Assembly: GCA_029269845.2 (NCBI GenBank) | Contig: CP149973.1 | Location: forward strand, 1,950,001-1,982,000 | Reading direction: 5' to 3' | Source of the DNA: Opitutia bacterium KCR 482 | GTDB lineage: Bacteria > Verrucomicrobiota > Verrucomicrobiia > Opitutales > Intestinicryptomonadaceae | Length of the DNA: 32,000 bases | Shown here: piece after piece, positions 3,972 to 31,881 of the stretch | Position numbering within the stretch: position 1 is the first letter of the stretch | Layout: each line of letters opens with the position of its first letter | Program-made: the position numbers and the translations under genes | Notes under the pieces: model-generated | Told to the model about the DNA's origin: nothing | What the model saw: the letters and a program-made list of their open reading frames with translations, nothing else | The model's database searches: none

Positions 3972-6227
3972 GTGAAATTACTATTGGGAATATTGGCGAT
4001 AGTCGGGGCGGCGTGCATGACAGTGCAGGGCGCGGAGACATCGGAAGGCGGAAAAACGGGGCGTATGCGCCGCGATATACCGTGGGTGTCGCTCGCACAC
4101 CAGCGGGCGATGAGGGAAAAGCCCGCAGAGAAGACGGAAGAGCCGACAAAAGAGAAGTCGCTGATTTCGCGGTTTACAAAAGACGCCGCGCCGGAACTGT
4201 CGGCGGACAAGTTCGAGTACGCCGACGACGGGTCGGGAAAACTGACCGCCCGCGGCAACGCAAAGATTTCTGATAAGAACTACGAATTGGGGGCGGACAG
4301 GGTAGAATTTTCGGAAACACAGGGATACGCAAAGGCGACAGGCGACGTAAAAATATCGGCGGACAGGGCGAGAATAACGTCGGACGACATCTACGTGGAT
4401 TTCAAAAACGACGCCATGAAGTCTGGCTACGTAAAATTCGGGTCGTCGCCAGTGTTTGCGGAGTCTACGTCATTGGACGCGGATAAATCGAAAGTGTCGC
4501 TTGGTGAGTCGTACATGTACTTCGGCGAACCCGCAAGCACGTCAATGTCGGCATCGGCGTCGGCTATTTCATACGATAAGGAGACAGACATTCTGTCGAT
4601 GGACGACGCAACACTCGCAGTAGGACCTGTGCCGTTCTTCTACGTCCCGAACTACTACCAGCACGGCTTGCAGCGGCCGCCGTTCGATGTAAACACGAGC
4701 GCGGGCTATAACGGCGACTACGGCGCATATATCCGCAACAACCTTTACTATAACGGACTTGGCGACGTCTCGCCAGGGGTGCTACTCGACTATTACACAA
4801 AACGCTCGGTGCTCTTCGGACCCGCCGCAAACTACGATGCGGAACTTGCGAACTCTGTGCTCAGCGGCTGGGTTCAGGGGGCGTATATAAACGACCACGG
4901 CAACGCGTCGATACGCGGGGAGGACTCGCTTGGCAGGAAAATCGGCACGGACCGCTTCTTCGCGGAGTTCAGGCATAAGCAGACATTCGACGACAAAATT
5001 TCGCTCACGGGCAACCTCAGCTATTGGAGCGACGAATTTATCACGCGCGACTTCCGCCCCGAACTTTTCTACGACAACCAAACTCCCGACAACTTCGGCG
5101 AGGCGGTCTACTACGGCGAATTTTTCACGGGCTCGGTGTTCACGCGCTTCGCGCCGAACAGCTGGGAGATTGTCCAACAACGCCTGCCCGAAGTCCGCGT
5201 GGACGTTCAGCCGGTGGAGATTTTCAATACGGGCGCATACCAGACGGGCTTTGCGTCGTACGCATACCTCAGGAAATTCGACCCGATGTCGAGCGCAAAC
5301 TACCTGTACTCTAACCGCGCCGACGCGTACTACGGCATCTACCGCCCGATAGAGCTTTCGTCGTGGAGCAAAATCACGCCGGTAATCGGCGGCCGCGCAA
5401 CATACTACGCAAACGCGGAGGGCGGCGGCGACTACGCCAGATTCCTCGGTCAAGTCGGCTTCGACGCCCAAATGGACGTCTGGGGCACATGGGAGTACGA
5501 AAGCAAAACAATGGCAATAGACGGAATCCGCCACCATCTGATTCCGCAAATATCGTACCGCTACATACCCGCCGCCGAACAGGGCAGGGGAAAAATTCCG
5601 CAAATAGACACCGAATATCTTACGACATATCCGCCCGTGCTCGACCTCGGCACACTGCGCAACGCCGACGAAATCGCGGCGACAAACACAATGCGCTTCG
5701 GGGTGCAAAACGTGTTCGAAACGCGCGACGACGAATACGGCTCGCGCGAGATTGCGCGCTTCGACGTATATCAGGACGTCAACTTCGACAAGCGCGAAAT
5801 TCCGCAGTCGGACGGAGAAAAATCGTTCTCCGACCTGTTCGTGAACGCGTCGGTCTCGCCCGCGCGCTGGCTTACGATAGGCTCGTATACGCGCGTGAAC
5901 CTCGACAGAATAGACCTGCCCGAAACGAACGCATACGTCGGGCTGCTGGACGGCGACGCGTTTTCCGTGTACTTCATCGCAAGCTACCTTAAAAACGCAA
6001 TCACGCAGTACACGACGCTCGCCGAATACAGAATCAGCGAACGCTACAAAGTGTTCGGACGCTGGAGCTACGACGAACGCCTCTCCGCATTCACAAACCA
6101 AACCTACGGACTCTGGACGCGCATAGGCAACTCTTGGGCGATAGAATACATGATAAGCGAACGCTCCGGCTCGAAACGCCAAAACAACTTTTCGTTTGGC
6201 ATGCGCGTGAGCATGATGATTTTCTGA
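3972..6227 (+). CDS. lptD: LPS-assembly outer-membrane protein LptD (OstA N-terminal domain plus C-terminal beta-barrel)
   Basis: The track ORF starts at TTG 3828. I place the start at in-frame GTG 3972 (or TTG 3966), which gives a signal peptide (M)KLLLGILAIVGAACMTVQGA/ETSEG. The OstA-like segment reads GKLTARGNAKISDKNYELGADRVEFSETQGYAKATGDVKISADRARITSDDIYVDF. A long Tyr/Gly/Asn-rich barrel ends in a terminal Phe (...RVSMMIF). Confidence 0.75.
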   Translation: MKLLLGILAIVGAACMTVQGAETSEGGKTGRMRRDIPWVSLAHQRAMREKPAEKTEEPTKEKSLISRFTKDAAPELSADKFEYADDGSGKLTARGNAKISDKNYELGADRVEFSETQGYAKATGDVKISADRARITSDDIYVDFKNDAMKSGYVKFGSSPVFAESTSLDADKSKVSLGESYMYFGEPASTSMSASASAISYDKETDILSMDDATLAVGPVPFFYVPNYYQHGLQRPPFDVNTSAGYNGDYGAYIRNNLYYNGLGDVSPGVLLDYYTKRSVLFGPAANYDAELANSVLSGWVQGAYINDHGNASIRGEDSLGRKIGTDRFFAEFRHKQTFDDKISLTGNLSYWSDEFITRDFRPELFYDNQTPDNFGEAVYYGEFFTGSVFTRFAPNSWEIVQQRLPEVRVDVQPVEIFNTGAYQTGFASYAYLRKFDPMSSANYLYSNRADAYYGIYRPIELSSWSKITPVIGGRATYYANAEGGGDYARFLGQVGFDAQMDVWGTWEYESKTMAIDGIRHHLIPQISYRYIPAAEQGRGKIPQIDTEYLTTYPPVLDLGTLRNADEIAATNTMRFGVQNVFETRDDEYGSREIARFDVYQDVNFDKREIPQSDGEKSFSDLFVNASVSPARWLTIGSYTRVNLDRIDLPETNAYVGLLDGDAFSVYFIASYLKNAITQYTTLAEYRISERYKVFGRWSYDERLSAFTNQTYGLWTRIGNSWAIEYMISERSGSKRQNNFSFGMRVSMMIF

Positions 6228-18739: not shown

Positions 18740-18816
18740 GGGGTGGTAGTTCAGTTGGTTAGAACGCCTGCCTGTCACGCAGGAGGTCGCGAGTTCGAGT
18801 CTCGTCCATCCCGCCA
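18740..18816 (+). tRNA. tRNA-Asp (anticodon GTC), CCA encoded
   Basis: GGGGTGG TA GTTC AGTTGGTTA GAAC G CCTGC CTGTCAC GCAGG AGGTC GCGAG TTCGAGT CTCGT CCATCCC G CCA. The cloverleaf folds cleanly and is near-identical in layout to E. coli tRNA-Asp. Confidence 0.95.
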
Positions 18817-19058: not shown

Positions 19059-20237
19059 TTATTGGGCGTTTACAGTTTCTGGTTTTACATAGTCCGACGG
19101 ATAAATGTTAAAGTATTTCACCGCGTCGTCATGCTTTGCGACGCCCAAATAGTGCTCGAATAAAATATCCGTATGCCTGTGCGATATTATGAGCGCGGTG
19201 TCGGTAAAGTTCCTGTGAAGCGCGACGTGATAGCTCACAAAGCTGTGTCTAAATGCGTTGTGCGGCGGAAACTTTACCTTGTCCGCCAATCCTTTTTTTA
19301 CGTCTTCTGCACTCACTAAAAGTCCTGCCCTGGGATACGCCAATTCTCTGCGTCTTTTAAACTTTCTTTCGCACATTGTAAATGCGCTCGGAGGTGTTCG
19401 TTCCAGCCAAGCCCAAAGGTTGTCTGGAAGATTTTCGATAAACTGGCGGCGGTTCTTCTTTGTCTTTCCCGCAGGCGTTTCTATTCCGCGTTCCTTGAAG
19501 TTGATTTCTTCATACGCCACGCGGGTTATGGCGGAACTTCTCATTCCTGCGAATAGCCCCAACGCCATAAGTCCGCAAATTTCTGGGTCGTAGTTTTCGT
19601 TTGCCCGAAGCAGTTGTTCTACCTCTTCCACTTTCAATATCCCGATTTCACCGCGAACTATGCGCTCTACGGGCAGCTTCACGGCGACATTCTTGCTCAG
19701 CCATTCCCTGTCGTCGAAATACGACCACGCCGCGCGGATTATGTCTTTGTAGTTTGTTTTCGTCTGCCCGCTATATGGCAGTTTGTTTATCCAAGCTACG
19801 AGTTCCTTTCGCGATATGTGGTCCAAGAAAACGTCGCCGAAAGTTTCGCAAAACATTTCGAGAATGCGTCTAACCCTCACGATATGGCTTCTGGGGCGTT
19901 CGGCGTCTTTCAATGCGAATATGTAGCTATTGCAGGCGTCGAACGTCGTGATGAGTTCCCTCGTCTTATGGTTTTCTACCCAGAAATGCCAGATGTCACG
20001 AAATGTTATGTCGTCGCCTTTTGCGGCTTTTATTTGGGCGACTTCGCTAATTTCGGACTTCGTCATTTTAAGCAGGGCTTCAAATTGATACTCCTCCAAG
20101 AAGTCGTATGTTTTGATAAATTCTTCGCGGGCATCGTATGTCTCGAAGAATCTTGCCAATCTTTGTCCGTTTACTCGCCAAGCTACCTTGAACGGAGCTT
20201 TGCGACCTTCACAGTATGATTTTGTAATATGTGCCAT
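19059..20237 (-). CDS. int: Tyrosine site-specific recombinase (phage integrase family)
   Basis: 392 aa. Catalytic signature: Arg in LFAGMRSSAI, H-x-x-R in HNAFRHSFVSYH, His in ISHRHTD and Tyr in LFEHYLG. The gene is adjacent to a tRNA gene. Confidence 0.92.
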   Translation of the reverse strand: MAHITKSYCEGRKAPFKVAWRVNGQRLARFFETYDAREEFIKTYDFLEEYQFEALLKMTKSEISEVAQIKAAKGDDITFRDIWHFWVENHKTRELITTFDACNSYIFALKDAERPRSHIVRVRRILEMFCETFGDVFLDHISRKELVAWINKLPYSGQTKTNYKDIIRAAWSYFDDREWLSKNVAVKLPVERIVRGEIGILKVEEVEQLLRANENYDPEICGLMALGLFAGMRSSAITRVAYEEINFKERGIETPAGKTKKNRRQFIENLPDNLWAWLERTPPSAFTMCERKFKRRRELAYPRAGLLVSAEDVKKGLADKVKFPPHNAFRHSFVSYHVALHRNFTDTALIISHRHTDILFEHYLGVAKHDDAVKYFNIYPSDYVKPETVNAQ

Positions 20238-27378: not shown

Positions 27379-27450
27379 TGCAGGGTGGTCTAACGGTAGG
27401 ACATCGGGCTCATAACCCGAAGATTGGCGATTCGATTCCGCCCCCTGCAC
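27379..27450 (+). tRNA. Element-encoded tRNA-Met (anticodon CAT) with an initiator-like anticodon arm; no encoded CCA
   Basis: TGCAGGG TG GTCT AACGGTA GGAC A TCGGG CTCATAA CCCGA AGATT GGCGA TTCGATT CCGCC CCCTGCA C. U8, A14, GG, U33 and TTCGA are all present. The anticodon arm is identical to that of E. coli tRNA-fMet. Caveat: the 53:61 pair is an A.C mismatch. The tRNA starts 6 nt after the DUF3102 stop codon. Confidence 0.75.
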
Positions 27451-27495
27451 GCAATTTCACTTGAAACTTCTTATGTTTTTATTCAAAATTAAAGA

Positions 27496-28551
27496 ATGAA
27501 AACGAACATATTTTTAAATTCGTATCAACAACCCGAAAATAAACTTACATATAATTTTTTATCTGTACTTGAATATCTGAACGATAAAAAAATTGTTAAT
27601 TTCCTGACTGGATTAAATGCCGACAAAGAAAAACCTATTGAGAATATTCAAACCGTGTATGGTGGAGGAGAGACAAATCCAGATGGAAGTTTTGATGTCA
27701 TAGCAAATGGCAAGAAAATTACAATATTATATGAAAATAAAACAAATCGCAGAGGATTAAAATCCGAGCAGCTGATTGGACACTTAAGTGGTCGCGACAA
27801 AGATGTTTTACTCTTGGTAACTACGCCACGAATAACAGATAGAAAAATAGTAGATGAAATAAACGATAAAAGAATTATTTTTAAGACTTGGAGCGAATTT
27901 GCTACATTCTTAACGGAAAATTACAAAAATGATTTTATCATTTCTAATTTTGTCGAATATGGAAAACAAAGCGGTGAATTTGAAACATTATGTGAACTTA
28001 ACAGTAAAGATATAAAAATCTTTTGTGACTTTCAAAAATTGAATTTTGATAGAAAAATACGAGAGATTTTTAATACATTTAAGGACTACTTTAATAGTGA
28101 TATTAACAGACTTTATAAAAAGATGGTCTTTTCTTATAAAGATCAATGGGGGAGACGAGGAGCAGAATTTGGGAACGAAAATGAGAATACTTATGGTCAA
28201 TTCGGAGCTTTAGCGTATTATTGGGATACATACGATCACCTGATAAATTTTAAACAAGATAGCATTCCAGAGATAAGTTTCTTTTTTGATGTTCATGAAG
28301 ATAAAAAATCTCTCTTACAGAATGACGAAAATTTTAGAAAAATTGTAAACGATTTAATCTTGCTAGGTTTTGAGAGTAATTTAGACGGGGAATTAACTGA
28401 TAATGTTTGGAGACTTTTAGTTTATAGAAGATCTATAACTTCATTTGATTACCTTACTCCTCAGGTATTGTCATCTTTTGCGAATGAAGTGTTTGAAAGA
28501 CTTATCGCAGTTAAAGCGAACGAACATACATACTTCAAAGAATTGATTTAA
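27496..28551 (+). CDS. AT-rich moron: protein with N-terminal PD-(D/E)xK nuclease-like motif and unknown C-terminal domain (351 aa)
   Basis: An uninterrupted ORF in a region far more AT-rich than its surroundings (sampled 60-nt lines give 18% and 43% GC). Motif layout: E14/E26 in the first helix, P62-D63...D67 (NPDGSFDV), E80-N81-K82 (ILYENKT), then SEQLIGH. That is the order and spacing of the restriction-endonuclease-like fold. Confidence 0.7.
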   Translation: MKTNIFLNSYQQPENKLTYNFLSVLEYLNDKKIVNFLTGLNADKEKPIENIQTVYGGGETNPDGSFDVIANGKKITILYENKTNRRGLKSEQLIGHLSGRDKDVLLLVTTPRITDRKIVDEINDKRIIFKTWSEFATFLTENYKNDFIISNFVEYGKQSGEFETLCELNSKDIKIFCDFQKLNFDRKIREIFNTFKDYFNSDINRLYKKMVFSYKDQWGRRGAEFGNENENTYGQFGALAYYWDTYDHLINFKQDSIPEISFFFDVHEDKKSLLQNDENFRKIVNDLILLGFESNLDGELTDNVWRLLVYRRSITSFDYLTPQVLSSFANEVFERLIAVKANEHTYFKELI

Positions 28552-28647
28552 AATGATTACAGGGAACCTCAAAGGAATCTATTAACCAACGACATACGGC
28601 AGGGACGTTCGGCAGACCGCTTTCTTCTTACGACAGGTAATTTTTGA

Positions 28648-28755
28648 ATTTCCCACTTTTTTTGAAATAGCAAGCTCGCAAGTGTCGTAAAATCGGTGTT
28701 TGCGGGCTTTTTTTATTGCGGGAAATCTGTGGGAAATCAGCAAAATATTTCCCAC
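28648..28755. repeat. Four copies of the 9-mer GTGGGAAAT (two orientations) immediately upstream of the Nu1-like gene
   Basis: atttcccac (28648-28656), gcgggaaat (28718-28726), gtgggaaat (28729-28737), atttcccac (28747-28755). Copies 3 and 4 form a perfect 9-bp inverted repeat with a 9-bp spacer. Copies 2 and 3 are direct repeats 11 bp apart. Copies 1 and 4 share a 13-mer, atttcccactttt. Confidence 0.6.
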
Positions 28756-28777: not shown

Positions 28778-29392
28778 ATGGACGAAAACATAAAAAACAG
28801 GATTCTTGAAGCCAATCTCCAAAATATCGCAAAGAAAGTTGCCGCAGGAAAAACTCTCACAAGTTCTGAACGCGCACTTATCGAAGTGCAAAACGGAGAA
28901 TCCGAAATTAGCAAAACATACGCCGAATCTGTCGTTGATCTTGCGGAAATTCTCGGAGTTTCACGTAGAACTATCGGTAATTGGCGCAAAATTAAGGGCT
29001 CGCCCAAACCTACCGCGAACGGCAAACACAATATTTCCAAATGGAGGCAGTTCATCAAGAAGAACGGACTGAAAGAAGCCGACACGCCAGAAGACGAGGT
29101 TTTGAAGTCGCGAAAACTGCTTGCTGAGGTAAAACAGGCGGAAATTAAGCTGAAAGTGATGGAAGGAACTTATGTGCCGATTGAAAAAGTCCGTGAAGTT
29201 TGGACTATGCACATCGGACAAATCAGAAACATTCTCGAAAGCCGATTTTTAAACGAACTTCCGCCGATACTTACCACCCTTGACGCAATTCAGATTCGTG
29301 AGAAAATGCAGGAAGTTTTGGACGAAACCTATTCCGCGCTTTCCGTCGCGGCAGAGTCAATCAAAGAGCCTGTCGATATTGAAGAATCTTAA
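28778..29392 (+). CDS. HTH DNA-binding protein resembling lambda Nu1-type small terminase subunits
   Basis: I prefer the start at ATG 28778 (MDENIKNRILE...); the track starts at TTG 28700. The HTH is LAEILGVSRRTIGNWRKIKG, followed by a coiled-coil segment LKSRKLLAEVKQAEIKLKVMEGTYVPIEKV, as in Nu1. No large terminase gene follows, so the role is uncertain. Confidence 0.55.
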   Translation: MDENIKNRILEANLQNIAKKVAAGKTLTSSERALIEVQNGESEISKTYAESVVDLAEILGVSRRTIGNWRKIKGSPKPTANGKHNISKWRQFIKKNGLKEADTPEDEVLKSRKLLAEVKQAEIKLKVMEGTYVPIEKVREVWTMHIGQIRNILESRFLNELPPILTTLDAIQIREKMQEVLDETYSALSVAAESIKEPVDIEES

Positions 29393-31219: not shown

Positions 31220-31242
31220 ATTTGACACTTCCGCCGTTATGT

Positions 31243-31881
31243 ATGGCAGAAGACAAAGCACGCATTTTGGCGGACGGAATTGAAGTTTGGTGCGCCTACG
31301 ACAAACTCGTAAAGGTTGACGAACTCATTCCCCACCCGAAAAATCCAAATACCCACCCGCAAAACCAGATAAAGATTCTGGCGCAAAATATCCGCTACCA
31401 CGGCTGGCGGCACCCGATTGTAGTTTCAAAGCTTTCGGGCTATATTGTGGCTGGGCACGGCAGACTCGAAGCCGCAAAAGAATTGGGCGTTTCAATCGTT
31501 CCCGTGGAGTTTCAAAAATTTTCTTCCGAAGACAACGAACTTGCCGTTCTTGTCGGCGACAACCGCTTGGCGGAGCTTTCGTCGCTCGACTTAAACGGGC
31601 TTCAAGACATCGTAGACGGCTTCAAGGAAACGAGCTTCGATACAATCTTAGCAGGCTTTGAACCCACCGATTTGAACGCTCTTCTTGGCGAAAAAACTCC
31701 CGATTTTAAAGACGAAGCCGAAAAGGAGCTTACCCAGTCGGAAGTCACAATTCAGGCTGGGAACTACCGATTCCGCATAAGTCAGGAAGATTTCGGGGTA
31801 TGGATTGACAAGTTAAAGCAGGAAGTCGGGTTCGACAAGGAATCGGTAATTGCGGAACTTCGCAGGAGGCTTTCCATATGA
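31243..31881 (+). CDS. ParB-like nuclease-domain (ParB/Srx fold) protein
   Basis: I prefer ATG 31243 (MAEDKARIL...) over the track TTG at 31222. ELIPHPKNPNTHPQNQIKILAQNIRYHGWRHPIVVSKLSGYIVAGHGRLEAAKELG carries the ParB N-terminal-domain signature, including the GHGR box. Confidence 0.85.
   Translation: MAEDKARILADGIEVWCAYDKLVKVDELIPHPKNPNTHPQNQIKILAQNIRYHGWRHPIVVSKLSGYIVAGHGRLEAAKELGVSIVPVEFQKFSSEDNELAVLVGDNRLAELSSLDLNGLQDIVDGFKETSFDTILAGFEPTDLNALLGEKTPDFKDEAEKELTQSEVTIQAGNYRFRISQEDFGVWIDKLKQEVGFDKESVIAELRRRLSI

Follow-up and report, generated by a model that had tools for sequence, protein, structure and literature searches.

The question raised by this locus is why a prophage should carry, between a phage tRNA gene and the small terminase gene, one solitary gene whose base composition departs so sharply from that of its surroundings. 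The stretch analysed (hereafter the window) comprises 32,000 nucleotides (nt) of Opitutia bacterium KCR 482, a member of the Verrucomicrobiota (contig CP149973.1, positions 1,950,001 to 1,982,000), and the gene concerned is an open reading frame (ORF) of 351 amino acids (aa) at 27496..28551 on the plus strand, with an ATG start and a GC content of about 30%. The best explanation is that it encodes a stand-alone two-domain endonuclease which forms the mobile cargo of a prophage hot-spot and most likely protects the lysogen, either as a defence or by superinfection exclusion; taken as a whole, we put the probability of this reading at about even.

Structure modelling shows, at the level of the predicted fold, that the N-terminal domain is a restriction-type PD-(D/E)xK domain with an intact E14/D63/E80/K82 site. 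In the AlphaFold2 model built from a 59-sequence alignment (mean pLDDT 92.7, pTM 0.64), helix 13-28, strands 48-52, 64-70 and 73-81, helix 90-97 and strand 104-110 follow one another in the canonical alpha-beta-beta-beta-alpha-beta order, with E14 in the first helix, P62-D63 before the second strand, E80-x-K82 at the end of the third, and Q92 and H96 in the helix that comes after it. The core fold by which the PD-(D/E)xK superfamily is defined is present, as are the catalytic D...(D/E)xK residues and the acidic residue of helix 1, all at canonical positions. When the model is compared with the Protein Data Bank (PDB) using Foldseek, the best matches are MspJI (E 6.8e-4), FokI, PaqCI, LmuA, RecU, AspBHI, SwaI, HindIII and BamHI, with Cap4 and Can2 lower down and, at E > 0.2, metallo-beta-lactamases and lysyl-tRNA synthetases as well; among viral models the matches are to restriction endonuclease, Mrr-like and VRR-NUC proteins. 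With scores as modest as these (TM 0.13-0.25 for the two-domain model as a whole, at 9-16% identity, for MspJI, FokI, PaqCI and AspBHI), the assignment is one of fold only. The nuclease matches can be attributed to the N-domain because the C-domain modelled alone gives none.

Conservation counts given here refer to an alignment of 59 family members. Invariant in all 59 are L37, G57, N61, P62, D63, G64, E80, K82, R85, H96, W132, F152 and E161 in the N-terminal part, and G219, R220, Y242 and E259 in the C-terminal part, while Q92 is found in 58/59. An earlier reading of the DNA from its letters alone (the sequence-only reading) had recognised a PD-(D/E)xK nuclease in the N-terminus, and both the fold and the invariant motif bear this out. 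Of the motif residues that it named, all 59 homologues have P62, D63, E80 and K82, and 57/59 have E14; E26 is less conserved (50/59), and D67, which is kept in 17/59, is not conserved. The features of the locus are the following, in window coordinates.

27379..27450, plus strand: phage tRNA-Met (CAT), the left anchor of the cargo slot (ARAGORN; Rfam RF00005, 62 bits)
27454..28570, no strand: AT-rich cargo insertion of 1117 bp, missing from the related phage L034 (blastn, alignments, GC)
27496..28551, plus strand: ORF of the two-domain PD-(D/E)xK nuclease family, 351 aa
27496..27981, plus strand: N-terminal PD-(D/E)xK domain, aa 1-162 (model secondary structure, Foldseek)
27535..27537, plus strand: codon of E14, the putative catalytic glutamate of helix 1 (E in 57/59 homologues)
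27679..27684, plus strand: codons for the PD motif residues P62-D63, ahead of strand 64-70 (59/59; read from the sequence)
27733..27741, plus strand: codons for the ExK motif residues E80-N81-K82, which close strand 73-81 (E80 and K82 invariant)
27982..28548, plus strand: C-terminal domain, aa 163-351, a putative targeting or regulatory module (domain-only model, conservation)
28572..28660, plus strand: conserved non-coding element of ~90 nt, the right anchor of the slot (kept in eight compared loci)
28672..28709, plus strand: terminator-like hairpin with T-run, part of the phage backbone (weak)

That the gene is an insertion can be seen both in its composition and in its relatives. The host part of the window (1-17 kb) has a GC content of 51-61%, the prophage part about 44-50% and the region of the nuclease ORF 28-31%, so that the three compositional layers described by the sequence-only reading are all present; GC at third codon positions (GC3) is 24.5% in the nuclease gene against 45-57% in the adjacent phage genes. 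Related phages were fetched through their small terminase (70-74% aa identity) and compared with the window by blastn. Homology to one of these, L034, ends at window position 27453 and restarts at 28571, with merely 18 nt between the two points in L034, and this comparison, together with alignments, defines an insertion of 1117 bp (27454-28570) with a GC content of 29.8% against 46.3% in its flanks. A second relative, L035, has 107 nt at the same place, which is likewise an empty slot. The insertion contains the nuclease ORF alone, plus 42 nt on its 5' and 19 nt on its 3' side, and neither target-site duplications nor terminal repeats were seen in it. The tRNA-Met gene ends 46 nt 5' of the ORF, and downstream lies the small terminase gene (ATG at 28778, end at 29392; PHROG 57, E 2.9e-15). 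The claim that a compositionally foreign single gene had been inserted here is thus upheld by the empty and alternatively filled slots of related phages as well as by GC3; the limits first drawn for it, 27453-28700, are right on the left and about 130 nt too far on the right. The terminator-like hairpin and T-run lie outside the insertion, and the number of such sites equals the shuffle expectation. The gene had also been credited with a promoter of its own, TTGAAA-N17-CAAAAT at 27461-27489. These letters are present, but the region holds 8 promoter-like matches against 5.5 +/- 2.2 in shuffled sequences, in a scan made without a consensus for the host phylum, and a count at shuffle level means that the match is no evidence of a separate promoter.

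The slot is not reserved for the nuclease. Besides the two empty alleles, three related phages carry alternative cargo in it, namely an oppositely oriented ORF of 120 aa whose GIY-YIG match stays below the Pfam cut-off (E 0.004; L033), a predicted membrane protein of 265 aa (L036) and an AbiGi-like protein of 192 aa (Pfam E 7e-8, PADLOC E 2e-8; L037). Every slot cargo has a GC content of 28-33%, compared with 43-46% in the flanks. This pattern, in which a gene of deviant composition occupies a fixed position in some related phages and is missing there from others, is the one that distinguishes a phage moron. The anchors of the slot are more constant: the tRNA-Met gene is kept in related phages both with and without the nuclease gene, and the ~90-nt element, which lies upstream of the small terminase, is found in 8/8 compared loci, including a non-phage genomic island, L001. 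The invariant core of this element is GGACGTTCG.CAG. An Rfam search with it returned no match and, with a compensatory change in one of 13 predicted pairs, it displays no convincing covariation; it may serve as a regulatory site of the late operon or as a site related to packaging. The block that the window has in common with L001 includes both conserved flanks, and cassettes would be exchanged by homologous recombination through the two bracketing sequences, the tRNA-Met gene and the ~90-nt element.

Further observations concern these anchors and the DNA near them. In two of the related phages (L036:3839-3992 and L037:2869-3022) the tRNA-Met (CAT) gene is split by an 82-nt insertion at tRNA position 32, and the same interruption is probably present in a third (L033:~4250-4393). 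The interrupted gene is found with the intron option of ARAGORN and missed by default, and it scores 40.4 bits over 154 nt with the full Rfam tRNA model; a group I intron would be longer than these 82 nt, and the insertion falls elsewhere than at the canonical 37/38 site. The nuclease gene is missing from the phages with the split tRNA gene. Elsewhere, an otherwise 100%-identical copy of the prophage (L030) is rearranged just past window position 28716 (corresponding to L030:7255-8059), where an IS1595-family DDE transposase gene has been inserted and the small-terminase region moved about 9 kb away. A functional link between the nuclease and the tRNA, of the anticodon-nuclease or antidote kind, was considered and rejected, since outside this phage lineage and the L001 block the two genes are not adjacent, and the same tRNA is present in phages that do not have the nuclease gene.

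The protein belongs to a family that has escaped the standard collections. The window protein has no match in Pfam, NCBIfam or PADLOC (in the last even at E 10), nothing better than E 0.04 among the PHROGs, and chance-level matches only when PDB sequences are searched by sequence and by profile. A word-indexed search nevertheless yields a family of 77 clusters, all of ~350 aa and all annotated as hypothetical, and an exhaustive profile search brings in 364 cluster representatives at E <= 1e-3. The hosts include Bacteroidales, Saprospiraceae, Lewinellaceae, Flavobacterium, Empedobacter, Desulfococcaceae, Desulfovibrio and Verrucomicrobiae. A search of 50,697 deposited phage genomes found no homologue, and the sole match among plasmids is a 27%-identical N-domain in a Halanaeroarchaeum plasmid. 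Eighteen contigs of the same prophage encode exactly the window protein.

Selection acts on the whole protein and is purifying. The ratio of nonsynonymous to synonymous substitution rates (dN/dS) is 0.15-0.16 in all three pairs among the genes of the window, of island L001 and of a diverged phage, L007, and between window and L007 it is 0.12 for the N-domain and 0.16 for the C-domain. Ratios of this size indicate that the protein is functional in the phage and in the island alike, where the same gene is kept intact in a non-phage setting. In L007 the nuclease gene occupies the same slot and is 85% identical to that of the window at the nt level, with a synonymous divergence (dS) of about 0.6, while the flanking backbone genes are 54-71% identical. 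A gene in the same slot of so diverged a phage is not a very recent arrival, and the proposal that it had been acquired recently is not supported in that form.

The second domain is conserved and has no known fold. Modelled alone (residues 163-351) it reaches a pLDDT of 94.7 and a pTM of 0.88, and Foldseek returns nothing significant for it in the PDB (best E 0.65), in agreement with the sequence-only reading, which had recognised no feature in this region. No SRA, EVE or winged-helix match was found in the PDB, and the non-significant resemblances are to type III secretion chaperones, PUR-alpha and phage single-stranded DNA-binding protein. Acidity is a trait of the domain throughout the family (median net charge -7), and the near-invariant residues of the domain are G219-R220, Y242, D247-H248, P258-E259, D265, G291-F292-E293, N295, W305-R306 and R311.

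This conserved domain is not tied to a single nuclease, for it is also paired with another PD-(D/E)xK family. In the 452-aa protein P0147 the C-domain of the window protein recurs behind a nuclease domain that Pfam assigns to PDDEXK_4 (E 3.4e-19). The A1 profile matches its residues 268-444 at E 1.3e-29, and hhalign aligns the family profile to it with 99.7% probability from the ExK strand through to the C-terminus, placing E80-N-K82 on an 'IIENK' motif that lies within its PDDEXK_4 match. P0147, whose gene adjoins a GmrSD_N gene, matches the PADLOC candidate PDC-S26 (E 5e-32, residues 28-435). The PDC systems are 145 candidates whose genes were picked out, by 'guilt-by-embedding', from within BREX, DISARM and Type I restriction-modification (R-M) loci (Payne et al., bioRxiv 10.1101/2024.01.29.577857). 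The PADLOC check suggested by the sequence-only reading thus gives a mixed outcome, being positive for this C-domain-sharing relative and negative for the window protein, which the PDC-S26 profile hidden Markov model fails to match at E values up to 10. Other arrangements also occur. In P0177 and P0182 the N-domain is joined to unrelated C-termini, with the ExNxLT, PD and ExK motifs kept, and in P0116 (676 aa) one nuclease domain precedes three tandem copies of the C-domain, an arrangement which suggests a repeatable binding module. Apparent stand-alone C-domain proteins, which would have pointed to an independent module, were set aside as unreliable, the one examined, P0128, being a broken full-length gene (tblastn on L039 aligns residues 1-350 without a break).

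The surroundings of the homologues show that the gene is solitary and travels between phage and genomic island. No conserved neighbour gene emerged from the homologue contexts examined, as the sequence-only reading had expected of a stand-alone gene, and a tRNA beside the gene is a feature of this phage lineage and the L001 block alone. Three loci (L001, L009 and L014) had hinted at a small partner gene conserved downstream, but their small ORFs are unrelated. In nine reference genomes the R-M neighbours are an MmeI-type IIG enzyme, two Eco57I-type methylases and an XhoI endonuclease with its methylase, and the other neighbours are two cyclases of the type found in cyclic oligonucleotide-based anti-phage signalling systems (CBASS), PDC-S01, PDC-S13, PDC-S27 and a resolvase; in seven of the nine, the GC content of the homologue is clearly under that of its contig. 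A Type III R-M system stands beside the homologue in L009 and an ABC ATPase in L010. These two loci carry the P0009 gene (L009:8001-9071, L010:3413-4483) in different assemblies, with identical genes downstream of it and different ones upstream, the Type III R-M system and a zinc-ribbon protein in one and the ABC-type ATPase in the other, which indicates a variable hot-spot next to this gene.

By its GlmM the host is placed, approximately, nearest to Opitutales metagenome-assembled genomes among named relatives (57% identity). The prophage itself begins at a tRNA-Asp gene (18740-18816), where GC falls from about 56% to about 45%, and close to this end a 391-aa ORF on the minus strand (19059-20237) weakly matches Phage_integrase (E 7e-4, short of the Pfam cut-off). 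Its genes in the vicinity encode an AAA_24 ATPase, a DnaC-like loader, a DUF3102 protein, the small terminase and ParB-N and methyltransferase proteins, to which longer copies of the element add a GpA-type large terminase and a Phage_portal_2 portal. The nuclease gene lies directly between the replication and packaging modules, on the same strand. Further on, a ParB-N-like protein (31222-31881) has matches to phage DNA-methyltransferase and ParB-nuclease PHROGs (E 7e-35), and in the longer copies its gene is followed by a gene for a second ParB_N protein (503 aa) and then by a Methyltransf_25 gene. From these annotations the phage may modify its own DNA, which would bear on any modification-dependent action of the nuclease.

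What the nuclease is for can be approached by setting the evidence against several accounts. A solitary Type IV-like, or otherwise DNA-feature-dependent, restriction endonuclease would be a mechanistic variant of the defence reading, in which the C-domain reads modified or foreign DNA and so positions a FokI/MspJI-like domain. The best structural matches (MspJI at E 6.8e-4, AspBHI, FokI and PaqCI) are indeed to modification-dependent or Type IIS enzymes, which need a separate recognition domain; no cognate methyltransferase or conserved partner appears in the contexts examined, and the company that the homologues keep, R-M systems and a GmrSD gene, is one in which Type IV enzymes are often found. 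However, the C-domain is acidic and unlike SRA, EVE, winged-helix or other known readers of DNA or modified bases, which makes this variant the less likely one, and the phage's own DNA methyltransferase-like genes would constrain any methyl-directed activity. We therefore regard it as unlikely, although deserving of consideration.

An account in which the gene serves itself, or the phage, is less probable again. As a free-standing homing endonuclease it would be a selfish gene that cuts the empty slot or the tRNA region and is copied, flanks included, by recombinational repair. The exact position of the insertion between conserved sequences, the existence of empty alleles, the higher identity of the gene (85%) than of the backbone (54-71%) between two phages, and the co-conversion-like inclusion of both flanks in the L001 block all fit such behaviour, as does the weak, sub-threshold Pfam match to GIY-YIG in another slot cargo (E 0.004). 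In phages, homing endonuclease genes can neighbour tRNA genes, as with T4 SegB, and I-Ssp6803I is a homing endonuclease of the PD-(D/E)xK type. Yet the slot also takes unrelated cargo that is not nuclease-like, the AbiGi-like gene and the membrane protein, and is thus a general cargo hot-spot rather than the homing site of one enzyme. Nor is the family confined to mobile or intergenic phage sites, for the members in the nine reference genomes, from several phyla, are chromosomal and lie by R-M, CBASS or housekeeping genes and not by tRNA-Met, and the 50,697 deposited phage genomes contain no homologue; homing accordingly appears improbable, though it is a rival to be taken seriously. Least probable of all is a nuclease for the phage's own life cycle or for counter-defence, acting in degradation of host or competitor DNA after induction, in recombination or in processing, and not in protection of the lysogen. 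The place of the gene between the replication and packaging modules, on their strand, would suit this role, PD-(D/E)xK nucleases are encoded by phages of many kinds, and among the viral proteins that match in structure several bear restriction-endonuclease or PD-(D/E)xK nuclease annotations. Close phage relatives are without the gene or have other cargo in its slot, however, so that it is dispensable for the life cycle; moreover, purifying selection keeps it intact in an island that is not phage DNA, and chromosomal, stand-alone genes make up most of the family.

The reading we prefer is, then, the protective one. The N-domain would cleave DNA and the acidic C-domain would control when or where it cuts. 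In the preferred version the C-domain would hold the nuclease inactive until a phage-derived protein or ligand binds; in the less likely one it would read a DNA feature, as in Type IV restriction. The role proposed by the sequence-only reading, defence or exclusion, gains indirect backing from the AbiGi-like cargo of the same slot, from the R-M, CBASS and GmrSD neighbours and from the C-domain held in common with a protein that matches PDC-S26, and the gene would presumably act by protecting the lysogen. Several points weigh on the other side. The window protein has no PADLOC match even at E 10, and its only link to catalogued defence genes runs through PDC-S26, itself a candidate system. The C-domain, a putative sensor, could instead be an oligomerisation or DNA-binding domain or, considering its conserved D247, H248, E259, D265 and E293, an enzymatic one. 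The association of homologues with defence and R-M genes is frequent but not universal: had they been found among housekeeping genes alone, this would have told against a defence role, and although that is not the case, housekeeping neighbours do occur (TGT, ribosomal proteins L1/L11, MutL, FolD; the L014 locus). Finally, expression in the lysogen is unsupported because the promoter match is at chance level.

That an AT-rich prophage moron should encode a PD-(D/E)xK nuclease, probably a defensive one, accords with a principle that is already well established, and to this extent the finding is solid and unsurprising. A bolder proposal, which we put forward tentatively as a possibility, is that the C-domain is a sensor of new fold that gates PD-(D/E)xK nucleases. 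The window family, the P0147-type PDC-S26-like proteins and P0116 would then make up a class of immune nucleases not characterised before, each a single protein that responds to a phage protein or ligand, and their cassettes would move between prophages and defence islands. Should the gene prove to be a defence gene, it would add to the single-gene nuclease defences a family that is missing from Pfam, NCBIfam and PADLOC, and through the common C-domain it would offer a first functional handle on the candidate PDC-S26. With a very confident model and no relative of solved structure, the C-domain would then be worth solving experimentally and searching for its trigger. The locus would also provide an example of a cargo hot-spot in the prophages of gut Verrucomicrobiota, in which phage-host biology has had almost no experimental study.

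The protein and its slot can be set beside several known systems. The FokI/MspJI-type enzymes (MspJI 4f0p, FokI 2fok, PaqCI 8em1, AspBHI 4oc8) resemble its N-domain in the PD-(D/E)xK core and in the positions of the PD...ExK strands, and in them too the cleavage domain is a generic module that a second domain targets. There is no relationship to them at the level of sequence, however, and the structural matches are weak; the domain order is reversed, the nuclease of the window protein being N-terminal, and its partner domain is neither SRA-like nor of any known DNA-recognition fold. It differs from the MspJI-like Type IV enzymes in having no recognisable modified-base-reading domain, while being, as they are, a solitary nuclease without a cognate methyltransferase. 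Type IV enzymes of the PvuRts1I/AbaSI type are stand-alone proteins of ~300 aa that have an N-terminal nuclease and an SRA-like C-terminal targeting domain and need no methyltransferase. The C-domain of the window protein has no SRA-like similarity, and no such protein is among its structural matches. For the slot, a parallel lies in the P2/P4-like phages, whose prophage cargo ('moron') hot-spots carry defence genes; common to both are a fixed position between conserved anchors and alternative foreign cargo, which in this slot includes at least one gene of a known defence type (AbiGi). Unlike in those phages, the prophage has a lambda-like terminase and portal and belongs to a gut bacterium of the Verrucomicrobiota (Opitutales-like), and the anchors are a phage tRNA-Met gene and a non-coding element instead of two core genes. 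A further comparison is with PDC-S26 as represented by P0147. Although the N-domain of the window protein is not recognised as PDDEXK_4 by Pfam, and no PDC-S26 model matched it, the two have the same architecture, a nuclease followed by the same C-domain, and PDC-S26 is likewise a single-gene candidate.

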